A stretch of 10,796 nt of DNA, from contig JAZDMQ010000121.1 of the NCBI GenBank assembly GCA_043800755.1, positions 1 through 10,796 of the forward strand. The letters run 5' to 3'. The position numbers were made by a program, and so were the translations under genes. The stretch is from a bacterium (GTDB taxonomy: Bacteria; Methylomirabilota; Methylomirabilia; CAVQYV01). This document shows, in pieces, positions 2,729 through 10,796 of the stretch. The stretch's first letter is position 1, and each line of letters starts with the position of its first letter. Under the pieces are notes generated by a model. It ran no database searches. It was given only the letters and a program-made list of their open reading frames with translations, and was not told the DNA's origin.

Positions 2729-3235
2729 ATGGGTGGAGAGAAAGGAAGCTATTTTCGCCGCGACCAGGCGATCTCTGGTACCGATATCTACAGCTACAAC
2801 ATTCATTTTCCTGAGCCTTCGATCTGCCAGAGGTGCCAGGCCGTCTGGAAAAAGGGCAAGTGGTCCCTGGACGAGGCCCTGCGCGCCGAAGTAAAGAGAT
2901 GGGAACAGCCCAAATCGGTGCTCTGCCAGGCCTGCCGCCGCATCGCGGATGATTACCCGGCAGGGATCGTCACCCTGAAGGGGGCTTATCTGCAAATCCA
3001 CAAAGAGCAGATCTTACAGACCATCCACAATGAGGAGGCGAACTCCAAGCGGAAAAACCCGCTGGAGCGCATCATAAAGATGGAGGAAGCGAAGGGAACC
3101 CTGACCATCACTACCACCGATTCCAAATTGGCGAGGAGGATCGGCAAGGCGGTGAGCGAGTCCAACGGAGGTCAATTGGAGATCAAGTTCTCGCATGGGG
3201 ATGAATTAGTGAGGGTCTATTGGGAGAGGAATTAG
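2729..3235 (+). CDS. BCAM0308-family-like protein with two CxxC zinc knuckles
   Basis: EPSICQRCQAVW..GKW, CQACRRIADDYPAGIVTLKG, NPLERII, ITTTDSKLARRIGKAV, VRVYWER match my recollection of this family. AGGGAG RBS at 2721-2726. Confidence 0.75.
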   Translation: MGGEKGSYFRRDQAISGTDIYSYNIHFPEPSICQRCQAVWKKGKWSLDEALRAEVKRWEQPKSVLCQACRRIADDYPAGIVTLKGAYLQIHKEQILQTIHNEEANSKRKNPLERIIKMEEAKGTLTITTTDSKLARRIGKAVSESNGGQLEIKFSHGDELVRVYWERN

Positions 3236-3240
3236 AAAAG

Positions 3241-4653
3241 ATGGAGACACCGGAGTCAGCCGTGCGGGTCCGCTTCGCCCCCAGTCCCACCGGTGTTCTC
3301 CATGTGGGAGGGGCCAGGACTGCCCTCTACAACTGGCTCTTCGCCCGCCACCACGGGGGCAGCTTCATCCTGCGCATCGAAGACACCGACCTGGAGCGAT
3401 CCACGGAGGAATCGGCCGGGGCGATCCTGGAGGGAATGGAGTGGCTGGGCATGGATTGGGACGAAGGCCCCTATCGCCAAGCGGGGCGGATGCACCTTTA
3501 CGCCGAGCACGCCCAGAGGCTGGTCGATCAGGGCAAGGCCTACTACTGCACCTGCCGCCCCGAGGAGTTGGAGGAGCGGCGCAAGACAGCCCTGGCCGCC
3601 GGCCAATCCCTGAAATACGACGGCCGCTGCCAGGACTCTTGCCACTCCGAGGGCGCCCTCCGCTTCCGGCTGTCCCAGATGGGCACCACGGTGGTGGAGG
3701 ACCTGATCCACGGACCGGTCTCCTTCGACAACTCCAACCTGGATGATTTCATCATCCTGCGGGAGGATGGCCATCCCATTTACAACTTCGCTGCGGTGGT
3801 GGACGATGCAGCCATGGGGATCAGCCATGTCATCCGCGGGGATGACCACCTCTCCAAGACCCCGCGGCAGGTCCTACTCTATCAGGCCTTCGGCTATCCC
3901 TTACCGCGCTTTGCCCATGTCCCCATGATCCTGGGTCCGGATCGGACGCGGCTGAGCAAGCGACACGGGGCCACCTCGGTCACCGCCTATCGGGAGATGG
4001 GCTACCTCTCCCAGGCTCTGGTGAATTACCTGGTTCGTCTGGGTTGGTCTCACGGGGACCAGGAGATTTTCACGGTCGAGGAGATGATCCGCTACTTCTC
4101 TCTGGAAAAAGTAGGCAAGACGCCCGCCATCTTCGATCCCCAGAAATTGGAATGGGTCAATGCACATTACATCAAAACCCAGCCCGCCTCCTATCTGGTG
4201 GGCCAAATGAGGCCCTTCTGGATTCAGGCGGGGATTAGCGAGGAGGAGCTGGGGGCCAGCAAGGAGGGATGGCAGGAGGCGATCATCGACTCCCTGCGGG
4301 AGAGGGCACGGACCCTGGTGGAGATGGCCCAGACTTCCCGCTACTTCTTCCGCGACCCGGAAGGCTATGACGACAAGGCTAAGAAGGCCCTGGCGGCCAT
4401 TGCGCAACCCCACCTGGACGAGCTCGGTTCGCAGCTACAGGGCCTGTCCGATTTCTCTGCCCCGTCCCTGGAGGAACTCTACCGCCAGTTCGCCGAGCAA
4501 AAGGGCCTCAAGCTGTCCCAAATCGCCCAGGCCACTCGGGCTGCCCTCACCGGAACCACGGCAAGTCCTCCCCTTTTCCAGATCATGGAGATCCTGGGGA
4601 GGGAGAAGGTGCTGCGGCGGCTGAGCTTGGCCCGATCTCACATTAGCCCTTGA
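3241..4653 (+). CDS. gltX: Glutamate--tRNA ligase
   Basis: VRFAPSPTG, HIGH motif HVGG, LRIEDTD, zinc motif YCTC..YDGRC, YNFAAVVDD, IRGDDH, KMSKS-equivalent RLSKRHG, C-terminal RAALTG..SP. Start set at ATG 3241, 5 nt after the upstream stop. Confidence 0.97.
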   Translation: METPESAVRVRFAPSPTGVLHVGGARTALYNWLFARHHGGSFILRIEDTDLERSTEESAGAILEGMEWLGMDWDEGPYRQAGRMHLYAEHAQRLVDQGKAYYCTCRPEELEERRKTALAAGQSLKYDGRCQDSCHSEGALRFRLSQMGTTVVEDLIHGPVSFDNSNLDDFIILREDGHPIYNFAAVVDDAAMGISHVIRGDDHLSKTPRQVLLYQAFGYPLPRFAHVPMILGPDRTRLSKRHGATSVTAYREMGYLSQALVNYLVRLGWSHGDQEIFTVEEMIRYFSLEKVGKTPAIFDPQKLEWVNAHYIKTQPASYLVGQMRPFWIQAGISEEELGASKEGWQEAIIDSLRERARTLVEMAQTSRYFFRDPEGYDDKAKKALAAIAQPHLDELGSQLQGLSDFSAPSLEELYRQFAEQKGLKLSQIAQATRAALTGTTASPPLFQIMEILGREKVLRRLSLARSHISP

Positions 4654-4690: not shown

Positions 4691-4764
4691 TGGGGAGTCG
4701 TCTAGTGGTAGGACTGCAGACTCTGGATCTGCCTACCGAGGTTCGAATCCTCGCTCCCCAGCCA
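4691..4764 (+). tRNA. tRNA-Gln (anticodon CTG)
   Basis: Acceptor stem TGGGGAG/CTCCCCA, anticodon arm GCAGA-CT[CTG]GA-TCTGC, T arm CGAGG-TTCGAAT-CCTCG, encoded CCA. Confidence 0.97.
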
Positions 4765-4768
4765 AGCT

Positions 4769-4844
4769 GGCCCCATCGTCTAGTGGCCTAGGACGCGGCC
4801 CTCTCAAGGCCGAAACGCGGGTTCGATTCCCGCTGGGGCCACCA
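4769..4844 (+). tRNA. tRNA-Glu (anticodon CTC)
   Basis: Acceptor stem GGCCCCA/TGGGGCC, anticodon arm CGGCC-CT[CTC]AA-GGCCG, T arm GCGGG-TTCGATT-CCCGC, encoded CCA. Confidence 0.97.
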
Positions 4845-4935
4845 ATCCAATCGCGCCACTCCTCATCCCTGCTTCTCCCTCTCCTTGACCCCAGCAAGAA
4901 TTAATTTCCCCGCGTCCAGCAATCCAGCTGCCATT

Positions 4936-6615
4936 TCAACCTGAAATTACAATTAGTTGCGTGGAAATGTCAAAATTAAAGACCTGACCCCATGACCCCG
5001 CCACGGCGCGGATGCGCTCCGGGTTTTTCACCAGCACGGCCATCTTGGCGGCGCGTTTGGCGAGGTCGTCGCGGTCCTGTTCGCTCAGGTCGCCGGTGAT
5101 CCGCTGGAACGCCTCGTCGATTGCCGCCTTGTCAATTTGGAGCCGCACTTCCGGTGCCTCGAAATGCAGCGGCAGCGTCGCCTTGTCCCGTATGGACTCC
5201 TGAAACGAATACCGGCTCATATAGCCCTTCTCGTCCTCGTCGGCGCCGAAGGGCCAGAAGGTGTTCCGGTCGGCGTGGTTGATGGGCGTGCCGGTGAGGC
5301 CAAAGAGGAACGCATTCGGCAATGCGTCGCGCATCTTGCGGCCGAGGTCGCCTTCCTGCGTGCGGTGCGCCTCGTCCACCATCACGATGATGTTGGAGCG
5401 CTCGTTTAACTTGTCGCCTGCCTCGGCGAACTTGTGAATCGTGGTGATGAGCACCTTGCGTACGTCCTGCGCGAGTAAGGTCTGCAGTTCCTGCCGCGTG
5501 GCGCACCCGACCATGTTGGGCACGTCGGCGGCGTTGAAGGTGGCGGTGATCTGGGTGTCGAGGTCGATGCGGTCCACGACGATGATGACCGTGGGATTGC
5601 CCAGCCTCGGATGCAGCCGGAGCTTCTGGGCGGCGAAGACCATGAGCAGCGACTTGCCGCTGCCCTGGAAATGCCAGATGAGGCCCTTCTTGGGGTAGCC
5701 GGCCACGACGCGCGCCACGATCTTGTTCGCCGTCTCATATTGCTGGTAGCGGCAGATGATCTTGATGCGCCGGTGCTTCTTATCCGTGGCGAAAAGGGTG
5801 AAGTTTTGCAGGATATCGAGCACCACCTCGGGCCGCAGCATGCTCTGCACGCTGGCCTGCACATGATGTAACTGGCCTTCGGCTTGGTTCTCCTCGTCAC
5901 GCCAGGGACCCCATATCTCGATGGGCATCTTGATGGAGCCGTAGCGGAAGAGCTTTCCCTCGGTGGCGAAGGAGAAGATGTTCGCCACGAACATGGCCGG
6001 GGCTTCCTTCTCATAGATCTGATTGATTTGAAAGGCGCCGTCGAACCACGTCACCGCGCGGCGCGTGGGCGTCTTCGCCTCGCCGATGACCAGCGGCAGA
6101 CCGTTGACGAGGAAGACCACGTCGAACCGCTTCTCTACCGGGCCGGCTTGGTAAATCCATTGGTTGGTCACGGTGAGCCGATTCTTCCCCGGCTGGGCGG
6201 CGTCCACGAGGCGGATGGGGACGTACTCGCCGCTCGGGCCGAAGGGCATGGTCTTCTCGCCGCGTAGCCAGGCCATAAAGTTCTCGTTGGCCCGGACCAG
6301 GCCGTCCGCCTGTACGGAGAGAATGCAGGCGCGTAGGTTGTAGATGACCTCGTCGGCGCGGTCGGGCTGGGCGGCGATCTCGGGGTTGAGACGCATGAGT
6401 GCCTCGCGTACCCACGGCTCGACCATCACGTCGCCAGGCTGACGCGGGAGCTGGGTGGCGGGGACATACATCCAGCGCGCTGGTCGAAACTCACCTCCGA
6501 GCGACAATCCCCAGCCGGGCCGGGTTTCGTGCAAGGCCAGCGGCTCGCCACCGCTGCCGGTTGTTACGGCATTGAGAATCATCTGCTCGACGGTGTTAGA
6601 TTCGGTGAACGTCAT
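4936..6615 (-). pseudogene. hsdR: Type I restriction enzyme R subunit, truncated at the 3' end (homologous part about 6615-5000; last ~20 aa are read-through into unrelated DNA)
   Basis: Nuclease motif RFDVVFLVNGLPLVIGEAK plus QxxxxY, Walker A HFQGSGKS, VVDRIDLDTQ, DEAH (VDEAHR), motif III GLTGTP, DKATLPL. It stops after PERIRAVA, so the second RecA-like domain (motifs IV-VI) and the C-terminus are missing. 559 aa versus roughly 1000 aa typical. Confidence 0.9.
4978..4999 (+). repeat. Left junction motif AAAGACC-TGACCCC-A-TGACCCC at the hsdR breakpoint
   Basis: TGACCCC at 4985-4991 and 4993-4999. HsdR-like sequence ends immediately to the right (about 5000). Confidence 0.7.
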
Positions 6616-7997
6616 TCAACCACCTCCCAATGCCCACCCTTGTCGGGGCCGACGCGCTGGATTCGGCCTTCTTCGCGCAGTCTGGCAATCTGCTTTTCCA
6701 CTGCCCTTGGGGAAATCCCCAGCTCGTCGGCAATCGCCCTGGCAGCTAACTTAGGGTCGGCTCTCAACAGCCCCAGAATCTTCTCCGAACTTTTCTCCGA
6801 ACTTTTCTCCGAACCAGCGGCCGGTTCCTCCGAACTTATCACGGCTTTCCGAGTAATCGTGGCCGTGAACAGGGAGCCGTCCCGATCGTCGGTGAAGTCG
6901 ATCTCGGGCCAGTTCTCCAGCGCTCGCTTGATGCCGGAGCCCAAGCCCCGGTAGGGCAAGAGCCCCTTGGCAATGTAGGACACCAGGATCGGATTGCGGA
7001 TATTGGAATTGCCGGCCCTGATTTTCGCCACGGTCAGGTTGTCGGGCAGGTGGCCGGGGCTGATGATCTCGATTCGATTGTCGAAGATGAAGAGCCTGAT
7101 CGGGGCGCTGACCAGATAGTCCCGATGCACCAGGGCGTTGACCAGCAATTCCTCGAAGACAAGCGGCGGAATCTCCGGCACCCCCGGCGCATTAACCCCT
7201 TGCCCGGTCTGCACCTTGCGCAGGTTGCGCATGACAAAGGCCATGGCACCCTCAAACATCGCGGTCAGTGGCCCGGTAAAATCCTCGGTATCGAGATACT
7301 TGCTCACATGAATGGCATTGCCGGGATAGCGGATGGCCTTAACGATGAACTGCGGCTTGATCCACTCCGGCCGTTCGGCGAACAACAGCACCCCGGCAAG
7401 GTTCAGCATGCCGTCATCCGTGGCTAGATTCATGTTCTGCAGGAGCGTCAACAATTCGTCCGGTGAACCCGGCCAGGGCTGCTGGTACACATCCCGCAGA
7501 AAATCCCGGAAGCGCAGCTTGTCCAGTTTGTCGATACCCGCTTTGGTCGGTAGCTCATCGGCATGAAACTGGTCTACACTTTGGAACAGACGGCGCAGCT
7601 CCTCCTTGGAGTTCACCCGCCGCTTGTCGGCTCCACTCTTGAGCCAGATGACCCCATTGCGGTCGAAATAGGGCTTGTCCTGCCCCTTGGGAATGGTGAG
7701 CACGATGACCACACGCTCATCGCCCAGGCTGATGTTCTCGGTCTGCACTGTGAGCGGGCTGCGTACATGCTGCGAAGCTGCGTTGCCGATCAATTGGTTC
7801 AACCGCGTCACGTCCGCCCGGCTCAGCCCAGGCAGAGAACCGTCATCCGCCACGCCCAGAAATATCGTGCCCCCCTCGGAATTGGCAAAGGCAGCCATCT
7901 CCCCGGCGAGCGAGTCGGCATTGGTGACATCCCGCTTGAACTGCCGGCGGGTGTCTTCGCCGAGGGCGATTTGGGCTTTCAGTTCCGTCAACGTCAT
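6612..7997 (-). CDS. AlbA_2 (Schlafen-like) domain + 'RecG C-terminal'/HATPase_c_4-like domain + C-terminal winged HTH protein (often annotated as ATP-binding protein or transcriptional regulator)
   Basis: GED..RQFK, AAFANSEGGTIFLGVADDG, EELLVNALVHRDY, IFDNRIEIISPGHLP, SNIRNP, GLGSGI, and a C-terminal HTH (ARAIADELGISPRAVEKQIARL..IQRVGPDKGGHW). Start set at ATG 7997 (MTLTELK), not 8084. Its stop overlaps the hsdR start as ATGA. Confidence 0.85.
   Translation of the reverse strand: MTLTELKAQIALGEDTRRQFKRDVTNADSLAGEMAAFANSEGGTIFLGVADDGSLPGLSRADVTRLNQLIGNAASQHVRSPLTVQTENISLGDERVVIVLTIPKGQDKPYFDRNGVIWLKSGADKRRVNSKEELRRLFQSVDQFHADELPTKAGIDKLDKLRFRDFLRDVYQQPWPGSPDELLTLLQNMNLATDDGMLNLAGVLLFAERPEWIKPQFIVKAIRYPGNAIHVSKYLDTEDFTGPLTAMFEGAMAFVMRNLRKVQTGQGVNAPGVPEIPPLVFEELLVNALVHRDYLVSAPIRLFIFDNRIEIISPGHLPDNLTVAKIRAGNSNIRNPILVSYIAKGLLPYRGLGSGIKRALENWPEIDFTDDRDGSLFTATITRKAVISSEEPAAGSEKSSEKSSEKILGLLRADPKLAARAIADELGISPRAVEKQIARLREEGRIQRVGPDKGGHWEVVE
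6781..6814. repeat. In-frame 12-bp tandem repeat TTTTCTCCGAAC (~2.8 copies) encoding SEKS repeats
   Basis: Partial copy at 6781-6790, full copies at 6791-6802 and 6803-6814. A further CTCCGAACTT lies at 6828-6837. Confidence 0.9.
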
Positions 7998-8077
7998 GCG
8001 GGTGCCTCCGCGCCCCCACGTTTTGCGACGGCGTCGGGAATCGTTTGCTCGATGGTGTTGGGTTCGGTGAAGGTCAT
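7994..8077 (-). pseudogene. 27-aa mini-ORF MTFTEPNTIEQTIPDAVAKRGGAEAPA, a relic copy of the hsdR N-terminus
   Basis: By manual alignment, 12/17 aa and 41/51 nt match the hsdR start at 6615-6565. ATGA overlaps with the hsdS stop (8074-8077) and with the next start (7994-7997). Confidence 0.8.
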
Positions 8078-9264
8078 GATGCACCTCCGAAGAATGCCGT
8101 TAGCATTCCAGACAGCATGCTTATCCTGCGTCGTCTGTTCTCAAGACCTGCACTCAATACAGAATCGAGTTCTTCCAATTCGGCGCAGATCTTTTCCTGC
8201 ACGTCCGGCTTTGGAATCGGAGCGATGTATTCCCCCAACTCGACTCTGTTGATTTTGGGGATTCCAGTCCGCACACAGCGTGAAACCGCGAAGGATGTGA
8301 AGTGCTCCCCGAGCAGGAGCACGAGCAGGTATCGCTCAATTATGACCCCTTGCTTTGGGCGGAGCGGATACATGTCTGCGCTGCAAAGCCCGCGAAACTC
8401 GGCAACGAAGCACTTCTGGAGATTTGGGAGAATCTTGCTGTAAACCACATCACCTGGCTGAAACAGATACTTGCCGCTGATGGCGTTCTGTTGTGCGGCC
8501 GTCTCGGTTACGAGAAGCCGGCCACTGCCTTGTTCAATGTGATTTGGCGCGACCAAAAACATCGAACGATACGGCTCTTCTTTCGGGTCAACTTGGCCAG
8601 AGACGATATCAAAGGACTCGACCAGGGGCGCGGACGGCCATTTCTCGAATGCGGATGAGTCAGTTAATGTGGCGGTCTTTGCAGCGCGGACTTTCGCCAC
8701 GCTTTCCAGAAGCCAATCCGAGGTTTGGTTGACCTCATCAACCGCCCAGAGGATTTCGGCGATGCGGCGCTGCTGGTCGAGCGGCGGGAGGTCGAACTCG
8801 AAGCGGGCGAGACTGCTCCAGTTGGTGCGCGGCGAGAGCGAACCGGCCGAAGTCCCGACCGCGTGCTGAAAGAACCGCTCCGCGAGGCAGAGGAACGACA
8901 GCAGTTTGGACAGCAGGCGGTCGTTCTTCGCCGCGAGCACGTAGATGTCGCCCGAGACCACCGCATCGAACTCAGCCACGGCCACCTTACGCTGGTGGGC
9001 GCGGCGTTTACCGAAGAGCACCTGCCCCGGTCGACAGCGGCGCGTGAACGTGGTGCCATCCGCCACATTGCCCCACGCCCGGGTGTGCAATGACCCCGGC
9101 TCCAGATGCTCCAGCCCGATGAACCGTTCGATGCCGGCCGCGTTCGGATCGCGCTCGGTTTCGTTGAGGTTCTCGGCCACATCTCCGAAGTGCATCCGCT
9201 GCCATTTCGAGCGGTCGAAAAGCGGGAGCCTGGCCCAGTCGGATGTGAGATCCATTGTGCTCAC
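8074..9264 (-). CDS. hsdS: Type I restriction-modification specificity subunit
   Basis: Two TRD-conserved region repeats: W..MHFGDV / GQVLFGKRR / LPPLDQQRRIAEIL and WP..PLVE / GDVVYSKI / IPKPDVQEKI..L. The GTG start overlaps the higA stop (GTGA); ATG 9255 is an alternative start. Confidence 0.9.
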   Translation of the reverse strand: MSTMDLTSDWARLPLFDRSKWQRMHFGDVAENLNETERDPNAAGIERFIGLEHLEPGSLHTRAWGNVADGTTFTRRCRPGQVLFGKRRAHQRKVAVAEFDAVVSGDIYVLAAKNDRLLSKLLSFLCLAERFFQHAVGTSAGSLSPRTNWSSLARFEFDLPPLDQQRRIAEILWAVDEVNQTSDWLLESVAKVRAAKTATLTDSSAFEKWPSAPLVESFDIVSGQVDPKEEPYRSMFLVAPNHIEQGSGRLLVTETAAQQNAISGKYLFQPGDVVYSKILPNLQKCFVAEFRGLCSADMYPLRPKQGVIIERYLLVLLLGEHFTSFAVSRCVRTGIPKINRVELGEYIAPIPKPDVQEKICAELEELDSVLSAGLENRRRRISMLSGMLTAFFGGAS

Positions 9265-10358
9265 TCCGTTTCCTCATACGGCCAACGGTAGAAAATCTTC
9301 AGTTTGTTCCCGTGGGATTTGAGCAGCAGGCGATCGTGTTGCAAACGACCGACCACAATGCCCGGCGCGATGCCTATCTGGTCGGCAAAGCGTATAATCT
9401 GAGCATGAGAGCGGCGGTCCCAGCTCTCCAAAAAAGCGCGTAACGTAGCCGGAGAAATCAGCTTGTCGCTAGCAAAAGCGTTGGCCTCTTCCTCTTTCTC
9501 ACCATCCGGGTCGTTGCCCTCGATGAAAATCTCCTTGCGGCCATGCTTGATGATGTGGCCCGCTTCATGGAAAAACGTGAACCAAAGTTGGTCGTTACTC
9601 TTGTAGCGCAGGCTCAGTTGTATGACGGCTTTTTCGCTTAACCATCGGGTTGCGCCACAAACGCCTGTTTTGGGAAGCTCGGGAATAAAAACCACTGCTA
9701 CCCCGGCGGAGGCGCAAAGCTTCACCAATTGCGGTTGAAAAACCCGAGGCTCTTCCCTGGTCAGACCACGAATGTCCTCAAGAACCTCTTGGAAACGCTT
9801 TTTATCGAACGGCGCGCACGGCATCTTCTGTGCATCGATCTCCCCCTTGCGAAGCCAAGCGGAAACAGATTCGGCGCAGGCCTCGAAGCGTTGCGTTTGA
9901 CGATACGCAACCTGATACTCTTGCCATACGGTCTTCCATTGCTCGGGAGAGGCGACGCCGAAAAAGCGCAGGACCTCTTCGAGCTGGGAAACCTTGTCTG
10001 TTCTTTCAGGAATCCACCCCAGCTTGGTCAGGGCGTTTACAGGCACCTTCTTCAACCAATCCAGGTATGAGTGCAGGCGCTCTTTCTCGGCAAGGCGCGA
10101 GCGGTCCTCCTGGAACTGCCTTTCCATGTTGTTCCAGAAGTGAGCCGGACGGCCAAGGGAACGCTCCAATTTCAGAGCGGTTTCAGGGGTAATCGGCGAC
10201 TTCCCCTTGATGATTTCATTGATGGTTTTCTTGGCCAGCCCGGTTCTTGCGGCCAATTCGGCCTGGGCCATGCCGTAGGCCTCAAGGTACTCCTCAAGCA
10301 CCTCTCCCGGCGTAACCAGGTAATCCGGAACATATTGATTCAGCATTGTTTCAGTCAT
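9261..10358 (-). CDS. higA: HigA-family XRE HTH antitoxin fused to an ImmA/IrrE-type (peptidase M78) domain
   Basis: TPGEVLEEYL..GMAQAELAARTG..KTINEIIKGKSPITPETALKLE..FWNN (HigA HTH). C-terminal QLSLRYKSNDQLWFTFFHEAGH (HExxH) and EEEANAFA. Confidence 0.88.
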   Translation of the reverse strand: MTETMLNQYVPDYLVTPGEVLEEYLEAYGMAQAELAARTGLAKKTINEIIKGKSPITPETALKLERSLGRPAHFWNNMERQFQEDRSRLAEKERLHSYLDWLKKVPVNALTKLGWIPERTDKVSQLEEVLRFFGVASPEQWKTVWQEYQVAYRQTQRFEACAESVSAWLRKGEIDAQKMPCAPFDKKRFQEVLEDIRGLTREEPRVFQPQLVKLCASAGVAVVFIPELPKTGVCGATRWLSEKAVIQLSLRYKSNDQLWFTFFHEAGHIIKHGRKEIFIEGNDPDGEKEEEANAFASDKLISPATLRAFLESWDRRSHAQIIRFADQIGIAPGIVVGRLQHDRLLLKSHGNKLKIFYRWPYEETE

Positions 10359-10521
10359 GAGTGTCCTCCACTCCCAGGATTTTAATGGCGGTCACCTTGG
10401 ACCAGTCCAATCCGCCGTCCTCGCGCACCGGGACCGGATCATGGTCAGGGATGAAAATCAGACGAAAGGGATGGTCCAAGTCCATGGACAGTTGGCCGGA
10501 CCTTTGCCCCTCAGTCAGTTC
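10351..10521 (-). pseudogene. higB: C-terminal half of a HigB/RelE-like 'killer' toxin; 5' half missing
   Basis: ELTEGQRSGQLSMDLDHPFRLIFIPDHDPVP..DGGLDWSKVTAIKILGVEDTH matches the C-terminal pattern of these toxins. Its stop overlaps the higA start by 8 nt. The upstream frame turns into Pro/Ser-rich repeat translation. Confidence 0.8.
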
Positions 10522-10568
10522 GGGGGGGAATAGAGGGGACGGGGGAATAGAGGGGGAATAGAGGGGAC
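10522..10568 (+). repeat. Right junction: stuttered G-rich repeat, GGGGGAATAGA x3 with GGGGAC x2
   Basis: G7-AATAGA-GGGGAC-G5-AATAGA-G5-AATAGA-GGGGAC, directly abutting the higB breakpoint. Confidence 0.85.
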
Positions 10569-10651
10569 GTTGGTGCAGAGCGTGCATTGCCCCTCCTCCA
10601 ACCGAAGATCCGGGGAAAAGAATCTTGCCCTACTCAACTCCCGACCCCCCC

Positions 10652-10705
10652 AAAAAAAAAGCAAAAGGCACCGTGATCTTCGAAAAACGATCTATCCGGT
10701 GCCTT
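10652..10705 (-). terminator. Probable intrinsic terminator or attenuator hairpin for a leftward transcript
   Basis: Perfect 9-bp stem AAGGCACCG (10665-10673) / CGGTGCCTT (10697-10705), with an inner GATC/GATC stem. On the minus strand it is followed by TTGCTTTTTTTTT. Confidence 0.6.
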
Positions 10706-10796
10706 CAGTTTCCACTTTCTTCCTCCGACCGAACTCGGTTATATTTGGCCAGGATATTACGAGGTCTATTAGGAAACCCTCAGCGGGTGAGCTGTT

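Follow-up and report, generated by a model that had tools for sequence, protein, structure and literature searches.

Solo TIRtron-type end repeats and junction stutters at the edges of a truncated restriction-modification/HigBA fragment beside tRNA-Glu

We analyzed contig JAZDMQ010000121.1 (C49 in our numbering) of the Methylomirabilota assembly GCA_043800755.1, a 2.43-Mb draft genome in 166 contigs; the whole contig, 10,796 nt long, is referred to below as the window. Downstream of gltX and two tRNA genes, it carries a 5.5-kb fragment of a type I restriction-modification (RM) and HigBA toxin-antitoxin (TA) locus that is cut inside hsdR at one end and inside a higB-like gene at the other. The motifs that abut the two cuts are solo end repeats of the TIRtron family, in which terminal inverted repeats (TIRs) flank genes for TIRYT proteins, relatives of the transposases (RAYTs) associated with repetitive extragenic palindromes (REPs). 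Each TIR turns its outer GGGG(T/A)C end to the fragment, and the gap between this end and the broken gene consists of a tandem re-iteration of the tip together with a few flanking bases, which we call a stutter. The fragment is probably what remains of a type I RM/HigBA island at tRNA-Glu, flanked by two solo TIRs and trimmed by the deletion of flanking DNA anchored at each of them. A first-pass annotation, made from the letters of the window, had put forward the capture of foreign DNA between motif-defined ends and, as its alternative, two motif-anchored deletions that trimmed an older island; the second of these is the best-fitting reading.

Two mid-gene breaks and the repeats that abut them

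The 559-amino-acid open reading frame (ORF) at the left end of the fragment contains two type I restriction-subunit domains, HSDR_N and SWI2_SNF2, and the HsdR model TIGR00348 covers its residues 48 to 540, which correspond to positions 17 to 506 of the 674 in the profile. The 993-amino-acid HsdR of a metagenome locus, L222, aligned with residues 1 to 538 of the window protein at 81% identity, and the DNA alignment of the two genes stopped at position 5001. The bases beyond the break are G (5000), TGACCCC (4993 to 4999), A (4992), and then the motif ATGTCAAAATTAAAGACCTGACCCC (4967 to 4991), and the break lies 9 nt past the outer end of the left TIR. At the right end, the toxin fragment gave no Pfam match even at an E value of ≤5 and was instead identified from 12 relatives of 42 to 105 amino acids, 2 of which carry the source name "proteic killer suppression protein." Similarity to the full-length relatives (80 to 105 amino acids) started at the E of ELTEGQRSGQ (codon 10519 to 10521), with the N-terminal part absent; the 78-amino-acid ORF listed at 10351 to 10587 takes its start from the stutter. 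The motif that follows the stutter, GCAATGCACGCTCTGCACCAACGTCCCC, occupies 10563 to 10590 on the minus strand, and the higB break lies 41 nt past the outer end of the right TIR. The first-pass annotation had placed the two ends of homology at about 5000 and at 10521, directly against inverted G(A/T)CCCC motifs with their C-runs toward the cargo and with local re-iteration. The comparison with relatives of the cargo bore this out to the base.

From the tRNA genes onward, the minus strand carries the truncated hsdR, a Schlafen AlbA_2/helix-turn-helix (HTH) gene, hsdS, the gene for a HigA-Peptidase_M78 fusion, and the 78-amino-acid ORF. Neither system is complete. The type I RM set consists of hsdS and 538 of 993 hsdR residues, with no hsdM in the window, and the HigBA pair combines a matched antitoxin (60.1 bits against TIGR02607, with a cut-off of 47.7) with a toxin that lacks its N-terminal part. 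Residues 9 to 182 of HsdS were 79% identical to the HsdS of L222, and relatives of the AlbA_2 protein found in a metagenome scan were 73 to 90% identical and located in RM loci. L222 was the sole relative to keep the hsdS-AlbA_2-hsdR synteny; it has no higBA and a different upstream half. The 5.5-kb fragment is single-copy in the assembly, and the second half of hsdR or higB was found nowhere in it. The hsdR and hsdM genes on C68, C160, C41, and C45 were considered as the missing halves and ruled out, as they showed no DNA similarity, and the N6_Mtase matches on C41 and C45 are unrelated at the DNA level. A Pfam scan of the window gave no match to Y1_Tnp or Phage_integrase, which upholds the first-pass statement that it holds neither transposase nor integrase. 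The boundaries of the island were not visible in the base composition.

Repeat families, Y1 transposase genes, and the stutter

A loose pattern of the left type (AAGAYNTGACCC) had 32 matches in the genome, and when the right type and a third type were added, 47 copies belonging to seven subfamilies were found genome-wide, a few of which are mismatched and probably false (e.g., the copy on C70, inside an ORF). All six Y1_Tnp matches in the genome are close to repeat copies. Inverted pairs with their C-runs outward bracket Y1 genes on C53 (12/1074), C128 (9479/10405), and C110 (3237/4717), giving units of 1063, 927, and 1481 bp, respectively, the last of which also holds mscL. For the Y1 genes on C134 and C10, one end each was assembled, with its copy pointing outward, and on C9 the copies point toward the Y1 gene. 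This sixth gene (C9:2936-3811) is of a different, classical RAYT-like type and contains an in-frame TAG. The link that the first-pass annotation drew between such motifs and RAYT-like transposases is borne out: in this genome the motifs flank, as inverted repeats with the C-run outward, four Y1 (HUH) transposase genes that have a C-terminal HTH. CRISPR-like or guide-like mini-arrays and promoter motifs were also considered and were dropped once the link to the transposase emerged.

The 292-amino-acid C110 protein matched NF047646 ("REP-associated tyrosine transposase") with 88.3 bits, above the cut-off of 80, and gave HTH_3, HTH_38, and HTH_23 matches at residues 248 to 284, in a C-terminal HTH. 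There are four paralogues, each paired with a repeat subfamily of its own, and in an alignment all of them share an HxH motif and a conserved Tyr. RAYT-like genes flanked by inverted repeats have been named TIRtrons and their proteins TIRYT, and many of the repeats carry GGGGWSAS (Di Nocera et al. 2013, PMC3733652). In the sections consulted of a later classification, most TIRYTs fall in subclass 2.1 of TnpA_REP, with a C-terminal HTH, no REP, and the motif GGGG[AT][CG]A[CG], and each transposase gene has a repeat family of its own (Quentin et al. 2018, PMC6006769). The left tip in the window, GGGGTCAG, matched GGGGWSAS at 8 of 8 positions; subfamilies B, D, and G also fit, and A and E each matched at 7 of 8. 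The nearest copy to the left TIR differs from it by 1 mismatch and is the right end of the C110 unit (C110:4717), which holds a Y1 transposase gene; other copies of its subfamily, C, are on C42 and C150. The subfamily of the right TIR, F, has further copies at C108:125238, C162:3785, C4:1769, and on C78. Predicted hairpins had fold energies of -0.5 to -3.5 kcal/mol and were no better than those of shuffled sequences in 6 of 8 repeats (z-score above -1.1), and the repeats contain no GTAG tag. These results identify the window motifs as solo end repeats of the TIRtron/TIRYT family, the right one being TIR-like with a partial fit to the tip consensus.

The family extends well beyond this genome. 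The pattern AAGAYNTGACCCC had 13, 14, 14, 114, and 105 matches in five related genomes, and its reversed control had 0. The copies in two of these genomes (G014 and G038) are mostly inverted dimers of ~85 bp; more than 50 of the C type were present per genome, a REPIN-like expansion, with a stutter at 2 of the 14 ends inspected. Gene-free TIR dimers also occur in the present genome (102 bp on C113 and 79 bp on C156). A scan with the four paralogues, using one genome per species, gave at least 597 relatives among the 610 matched stretches listed, and TIRYTs thus are among the most widespread Y1/HUH proteins. The best 80 of these 610 came from Nitrospirota, Desulfobacterota, Gamma- and Betaproteobacteria, Acidobacteriota, Elusimicrobia, candidate phyla, and others, and the majority of these 80 loci were units of ~900 to 950 bp with the end ...AGACCTGACCCC.

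Any tandem duplication with a score of ≥8 whose start fell in the last 8 nt of a repeat or ≤3 nt beyond it was counted as a stutter, and 3000 of the 6997 G[AT]CCC[CT] sites in the genome were sampled as controls. The threshold was reached by 19 of 46 scorable copies compared with 1.6% of the controls, and a score of ≥10 was reached by 13 of 46 compared with 0.4%. Among the best 80 loci of other species, 58 had a recognizable tip, and 30 of 94 ends, spread over 24 loci, scored ≥8; the control rate within these loci was high (53/384), probably because unrecognized TIR variants among them were scored as control sites. The stutter is associated with TIR ends, genome-wide and across phyla. The [TGACCCC + X] re-iteration of the left junction was also seen in other genomes, and among the F copies, those on C108 and C162 and one in the sister genome G001 have stutters of their own, while those on C4 and C78 have none. 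The duplicated unit always crosses the junction between tip and flank: it takes 1 to >13 nt from the repeat and 1 to ~19 nt from the flank and is present 2 to 5 times. Measured from the TIR tip, its left edge ranges from -1 to below -9. This spread led us to reject a fixed nick site at the left edge of every unit, and a target-site duplication was rejected because the flanks at the two ends of complete units differ.

The stutter also varies in length at a single junction. A separate assembly, of run X1, which may be the source sample and so is not fully independent, contains a 595-nt contig (record 7) that takes in the truncated higB, the stutter and the TIR and extends 123 nt past the window. 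This contig spans 10294 to 10796 with 28 nt left out at 10524, and the higB junction is unchanged, so the stutter changed after the junction had formed. Additionally, three contig ends (C53:1-141, C53:19740-19880, and C147:13538-13678) share an identical stretch of 141 nt, the left end of the C53 TIRtron. Behind the TIR and the first stutter unit that these assembly-graph overlaps have in common, both the further course of the stutter and the distal flank differ. A circular C53, as its 141-nt terminal overlap could suggest, was rejected, because the contig carries acetyl-CoA synthase/CO dehydrogenase genes and thus is chromosomal and not a plasmid.

The literature searched, including PMC3733652, PMC3337134, and PMC5581495 in the parts available, contained no description of the stutter, and the motif strings were found in no relevant paper. 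The main text of PMC3733652 contains none of the terms "duplicat," "target site," "slipp," "direct repeat," and "truncat." Thus, the first-pass label "undescribed" does not hold for the motif family and its transposases, which are published as TIRtrons and TIRYT; it holds, within these sources, for the stutter. Together with its occasional pairing with flank loss, the stutter looks like an undescribed property of a widespread enzyme family.

Three further observations concern the surroundings of the repeats. An E-type TIR lies directly upstream of an intact Cas3 HD-domain gene (C113:8386-9316, L166). A second class I Glu/Gln-tRNA synthetase gene begins just outside the C110 TIRtron (C110:2337-3267, L164), echoing the gltX-tRNA-TIR surroundings in the window. 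Composite ends at C150:2316-2385 and C140:5680-5742 consist of a B-like repeat, ~22 nt, and an E-type repeat in one orientation.

A probable decayed tRNA-Glu island and its possible histories

The last 45 nt of tRNA-Glu (4801 to 4845) are duplicated at 100% identity on C85 (16280 to 16324). The repeat begins in the anticodon loop of the tRNA, as integrase attachment (att) sites do. The copy lies ~470 nt inside the contig end that overlaps the end of the window (Table 1), and C85 runs ~250 nt past the overlap before reaching it. This duplication places the RM/TA fragment in a decayed tRNA-Glu island, and the fragment is best read as the remnant of such an island, ~6.2 kb long if C49 and C85 are adjacent. 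The first-pass annotation had found no duplication of a tRNA 3' end, which is true inside the window and does not hold once the neighboring contig is included. The locus has no integrase, and the PF00589 matches in the genome are all on C62, C43, and C93. Further partial copies of tRNA-Glu are present on C45 and C135. In G001, the region downstream of the same tRNA-Glu contains a tandem series of three extra tRNA-Glu 3' copies (C3:500000-528000, L031/L032, past gltX-tRNA-Gln-tRNA-Glu); the same 30 nt follow each extra copy, and the segments between the copies hold caspase/CHAT/patatin or metabolic genes and no integrase. At three other sites in the present genome (C9:4380-4740, C45:600-900, and C135:2060-2480), a tRNA-Glu or a 3' fragment of it is followed by a terminator hairpin and, 25 to 150 nt on, a TIR with its C-run away from the tRNA, a layout like that in the window. 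A third truncation is seen on C135, where a tRNA-Glu 3' fragment reduced to 32 nt directly adjoins a TIR C-run followed by 10 nt.

Under the reading that we favor, a flank deletion anchored at each TIR end would have removed the 3' half of hsdR, and probably the island integrase as well, on the left side and hsdM and the 5' end of higB on the right side. Two forms of anchoring can be envisaged. The cognate transposase may cleave or stall at the TIR tip, with the flank then lost and rejoined, or TIR copies in the same orientation may recombine. By analogy with IS608-type Y1 enzymes, the strand that is cleaved, or on which synthesis stalls, would be the one reading ...TGACCCC-3'. If the broken flank were then lost and rejoined, the resulting deletions would have one fixed endpoint, like the adjacent deletions mediated by insertion sequences (ISs). 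A stutter could later arise at the same point by short re-copying over the junction, if synthesis primed at the TIR tip slips or is displaced, and C-run microhomology would bound this re-copying to give junction-spanning duplications. Plain slippage or recombination between repeat copies may contribute at either step. The broader proposal, namely that TIRYT enzymes leave junction-spanning micro-duplications at the GGGGWSAS tip, that these expand and contract, and that the DNA beyond is sometimes deleted or exchanged, may be correct, although we lean somewhat against it; the differing distal flanks behind one stutter unit on C53 and C147 leave room for a more active reading.

Several observations weigh against anchored deletion. 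A census of the 44 copies outside the window yielded 76 open frames that reach a repeat, and 15 of these had Pfam matches. The repeat-facing side was complete in 13 of the 15; one neighbor, on C122, may be cut (a galT-like C-terminal domain, below the Pfam cut-off), and in the last the repeat copy lies within the gene and is probably false. With 13 of 15 neighbors intact, deletion is not a regular outcome, and the genome-wide enrichment of the motif at truncation points for which the first-pass annotation had proposed a test was not found. Truncation is an occasional outcome, here in dispensable island DNA, and not the rule. The window contains no transposase gene. No cognate transposase gene was found for subfamily F in the genome or beside its copies in 40 relatives, where the F-type pattern gave mostly one-mismatch chance matches with no link to a transposase, and the F tip, GGGGACGT, matched only 6 of the 8 positions of GGGGWSAS. 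The adjacency of C49 and C85 is taken from a 221-nt overlap at 97%, not at identity. The comparison was run on assembled contigs, and the confirmation that X1 gives is for the right junction. Finally, neither the assembly nor the metagenome scan with the AlbA_2 protein contained an intact version of the island, so we infer the deleted DNA, as we infer the enzyme activity, the nick site, and the order of events.

The strongest alternative is that small TIR elements, as singles or dimers, entered an intact hsdR and an intact higB and that the outer halves of both genes were lost afterwards without the transposase, either in ordinary deletions or by homologous recombination between TIR copies in the same orientation. 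Gene-free dimers do exist, here and in G014 and G038, and most insertions are intergenic and harmless. There also are putative remnants of same-orientation repeat ends between tRNA-Glu and the left TIR, recognized by reading the sequence and by comparison with the C110 copy AGCAAGAGTAAAGACCTGACCCC. However, this history needs two coincidences, with deletions that end ≤9 and ≤41 nt from the TIR tips, and it has to account for the absence of both missing gene halves from the assembly; repeats of 25 to 28 nt also are poor substrates for homologous recombination. We consider it unlikely. A somewhat more doubtful alternative concerns the stutter, which could be plain replication slippage at C-runs, whose opposite strand is rich in G-runs and prone to form quadruplexes, with the transposase uninvolved. 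C-run microhomology bounds the units, several of the opposite strands have ≥4 G-runs, and the scattered left edges fit no single nick site. On the other hand, the rate at other G[AT]CCC[CT] sites in the genome was only 1.6%, and many stutters have no G- or C-run past the TIR tip, such as TTTCTTTCTC on C9.

Compared with these alternatives and with anchored deletion, the capture proposed in the first-pass annotation is improbable. In that model, a trans-acting, sequence-specific nickase would have linked an inner portion of a foreign RM/TA operon to motif-defined ends on both sides, and it is true that both ends lie mid-gene against a motif with filler and that C53 and C147 illustrate how the DNA past a stutter can differ. 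However, the C-run is the outer end in every gene-bearing unit, and the fragment therefore lies outside both elements. The ends belong to subfamilies C and F and, if the published rule of one repeat family per gene applies, would each need an enzyme of their own, and the fragment occurs once, its arrival being explained by the att duplication that brackets the locus. Chimeric metagenome-assembly joins at short, low-complexity repeats can be dismissed almost entirely: the draft is in 166 contigs, 7 of 47 motif copies lie ≤350 nt from a contig end compared with 4.8% of the genome, and the window ends inside a repeat, but the X1 contig spans the right junction (with the reservation about its source given above) and the same architecture occurs in complete or long contigs of unrelated genomes.

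Two further features of the window were noted. A 168-amino-acid ORF at 2729 to 3235, which overlaps opposite-strand ORFs and may be spurious, has a weak NMD3-family Pfam match (E value, 4e-7) that is odd for a bacterial genome. A palindromic, terminator-like repeat at 10657 to 10705 (AAAAGGCACCG...CGGTGCCTT) recurs on other contigs as at least 12 partial copies with 79 to 90% identity and is a family separate from the TIRs.

Table 1. Features of the window, with the evidence for each
Feature	Position (nt)	Strand	Basis
gltX	3220-4653	+	Pfam
tRNA-Gln (CTG)	4691-4764	+	ARAGORN
tRNA-Glu (CTC); the left copy of the att-type direct repeat consists of its last 45 nt (4801-4845)	4769-4844	+	ARAGORN
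Putative remnants of older same-orientation repeat ends: TTGACCCC, then degenerate copy AGCAAGAATTAATTTCCCC	4885-4911	+	Reading of the sequence, comparison with C110 copy
Left solo TIR, subfamily C, outer end GGGGTCAG toward hsdR	4967-4991	+	Repeat census
Left stutter and filler: TGACCCC, A, TGACCCC, G	4985-5000	+	Tandem score 7, period 8
hsdR, N-terminal 538 residues (HSDR_N and first motor domain); ~455 C-terminal residues gone	5001-6615	-	TIGR00348, L222 alignment
Schlafen AlbA_2/HATPase_c_4/winged-HTH protein, apparently whole	6612-8084	-	Pfam
hsdS specificity subunit	8074-9264	-	Pfam Methylase_S
HigA-type antitoxin fused to Peptidase_M78 (ImmA/IrrE-like) domain	9261-10358	-	Pfam HTH_3, Peptidase_M78; TIGR02607
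HigB-like toxin gene, C-terminal 56 residues only	10351-10521	-	Alignment with relatives
Right stutter, 41 nt: TCTATTCCCCC, TCTATTCCCCC, GTCCCC, TCTATTCCCCCCC	10522-10562	-	Score 15, period 11
Right solo TIR-like repeat, subfamily F, outer end GGGGACGT toward higB	10563-10590	-	Repeat census
Right arm of island	10574-10796		Overlap with C85 end, 221 nt (10574-10794), 97%

Comparison with known systems

The window shows that TIR repeats may coincide exactly with the edges of decayed defense islands, and recognizing them accounts for the two mid-gene breaks in the window and for several contig breaks in the draft. The published accounts consulted for the family name no activity, cleavage site, or biological effect of TIRYTs. 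If the proposal is right, the stutter would be an undescribed, cross-phylum mutational signature of an HUH family and a route by which islands near tRNA genes are eroded or reshuffled. The scar also would predict the working end of the repeat, and stutter length would offer a simple assay read-out.

The genome resembles published TIRtron carriers in its RAYT-related Y1 HUH genes with a C-terminal HTH, in flanks that are inverted repeats and not palindromes, in tips that fit GGGGWSAS, and in repeats dispersed as singles, dimers, or clusters. The window itself differs from TIRtrons in having solo repeats and no gene, with a right repeat that fits the consensus in part, and the junction stutter and the truncated neighbors set it apart from the TIRtron description in the sources consulted. 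As in REP/REPIN-RAYT systems, there is one repeat family per gene, inverted copies bracket the gene, and intergenic dimers measure ~70 to 100 bp; unlike those systems, the repeats have no stable hairpin (6 of 8 fold like shuffles), no GTAG tag, and a low copy number here.

The enzymes share the catalytic fold and the Pfam family Y1_Tnp with IS200/IS605 transposases of the IS608 type. The expected chemistry is single-strand cleavage that produces a 3'-OH end and, across the cut, a 5'-phosphotyrosine end. The IS elements carry subterminal hairpins on one strand, lack inverted terminal repeats, and are not known to duplicate flanking DNA. The present repeats are unlike them in being inverted, in their variable flank re-iteration, and in the absence of hairpins in 6 of 8. 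Adjacent deletions and one-ended events mediated by ISs such as IS1, IS10, and IS91 have one endpoint fixed at the element tip and the other variable and are carried out by DDE or Y2 enzymes. The deletions proposed for the window would be like these in having one endpoint at the tip and unlike them in enzyme class and in the filler stutter, which to our knowledge does not accompany adjacent deletions of the IS1, IS10, or IS91 type. Finally, the locus is unlike typical tRNA-integrated islands in that no integrase is left and only ~6.2 kb remain, and it is like them in the direct repeat of the tRNA 3' half, the RM and TA cargo, and the tandem accretion seen in G001.

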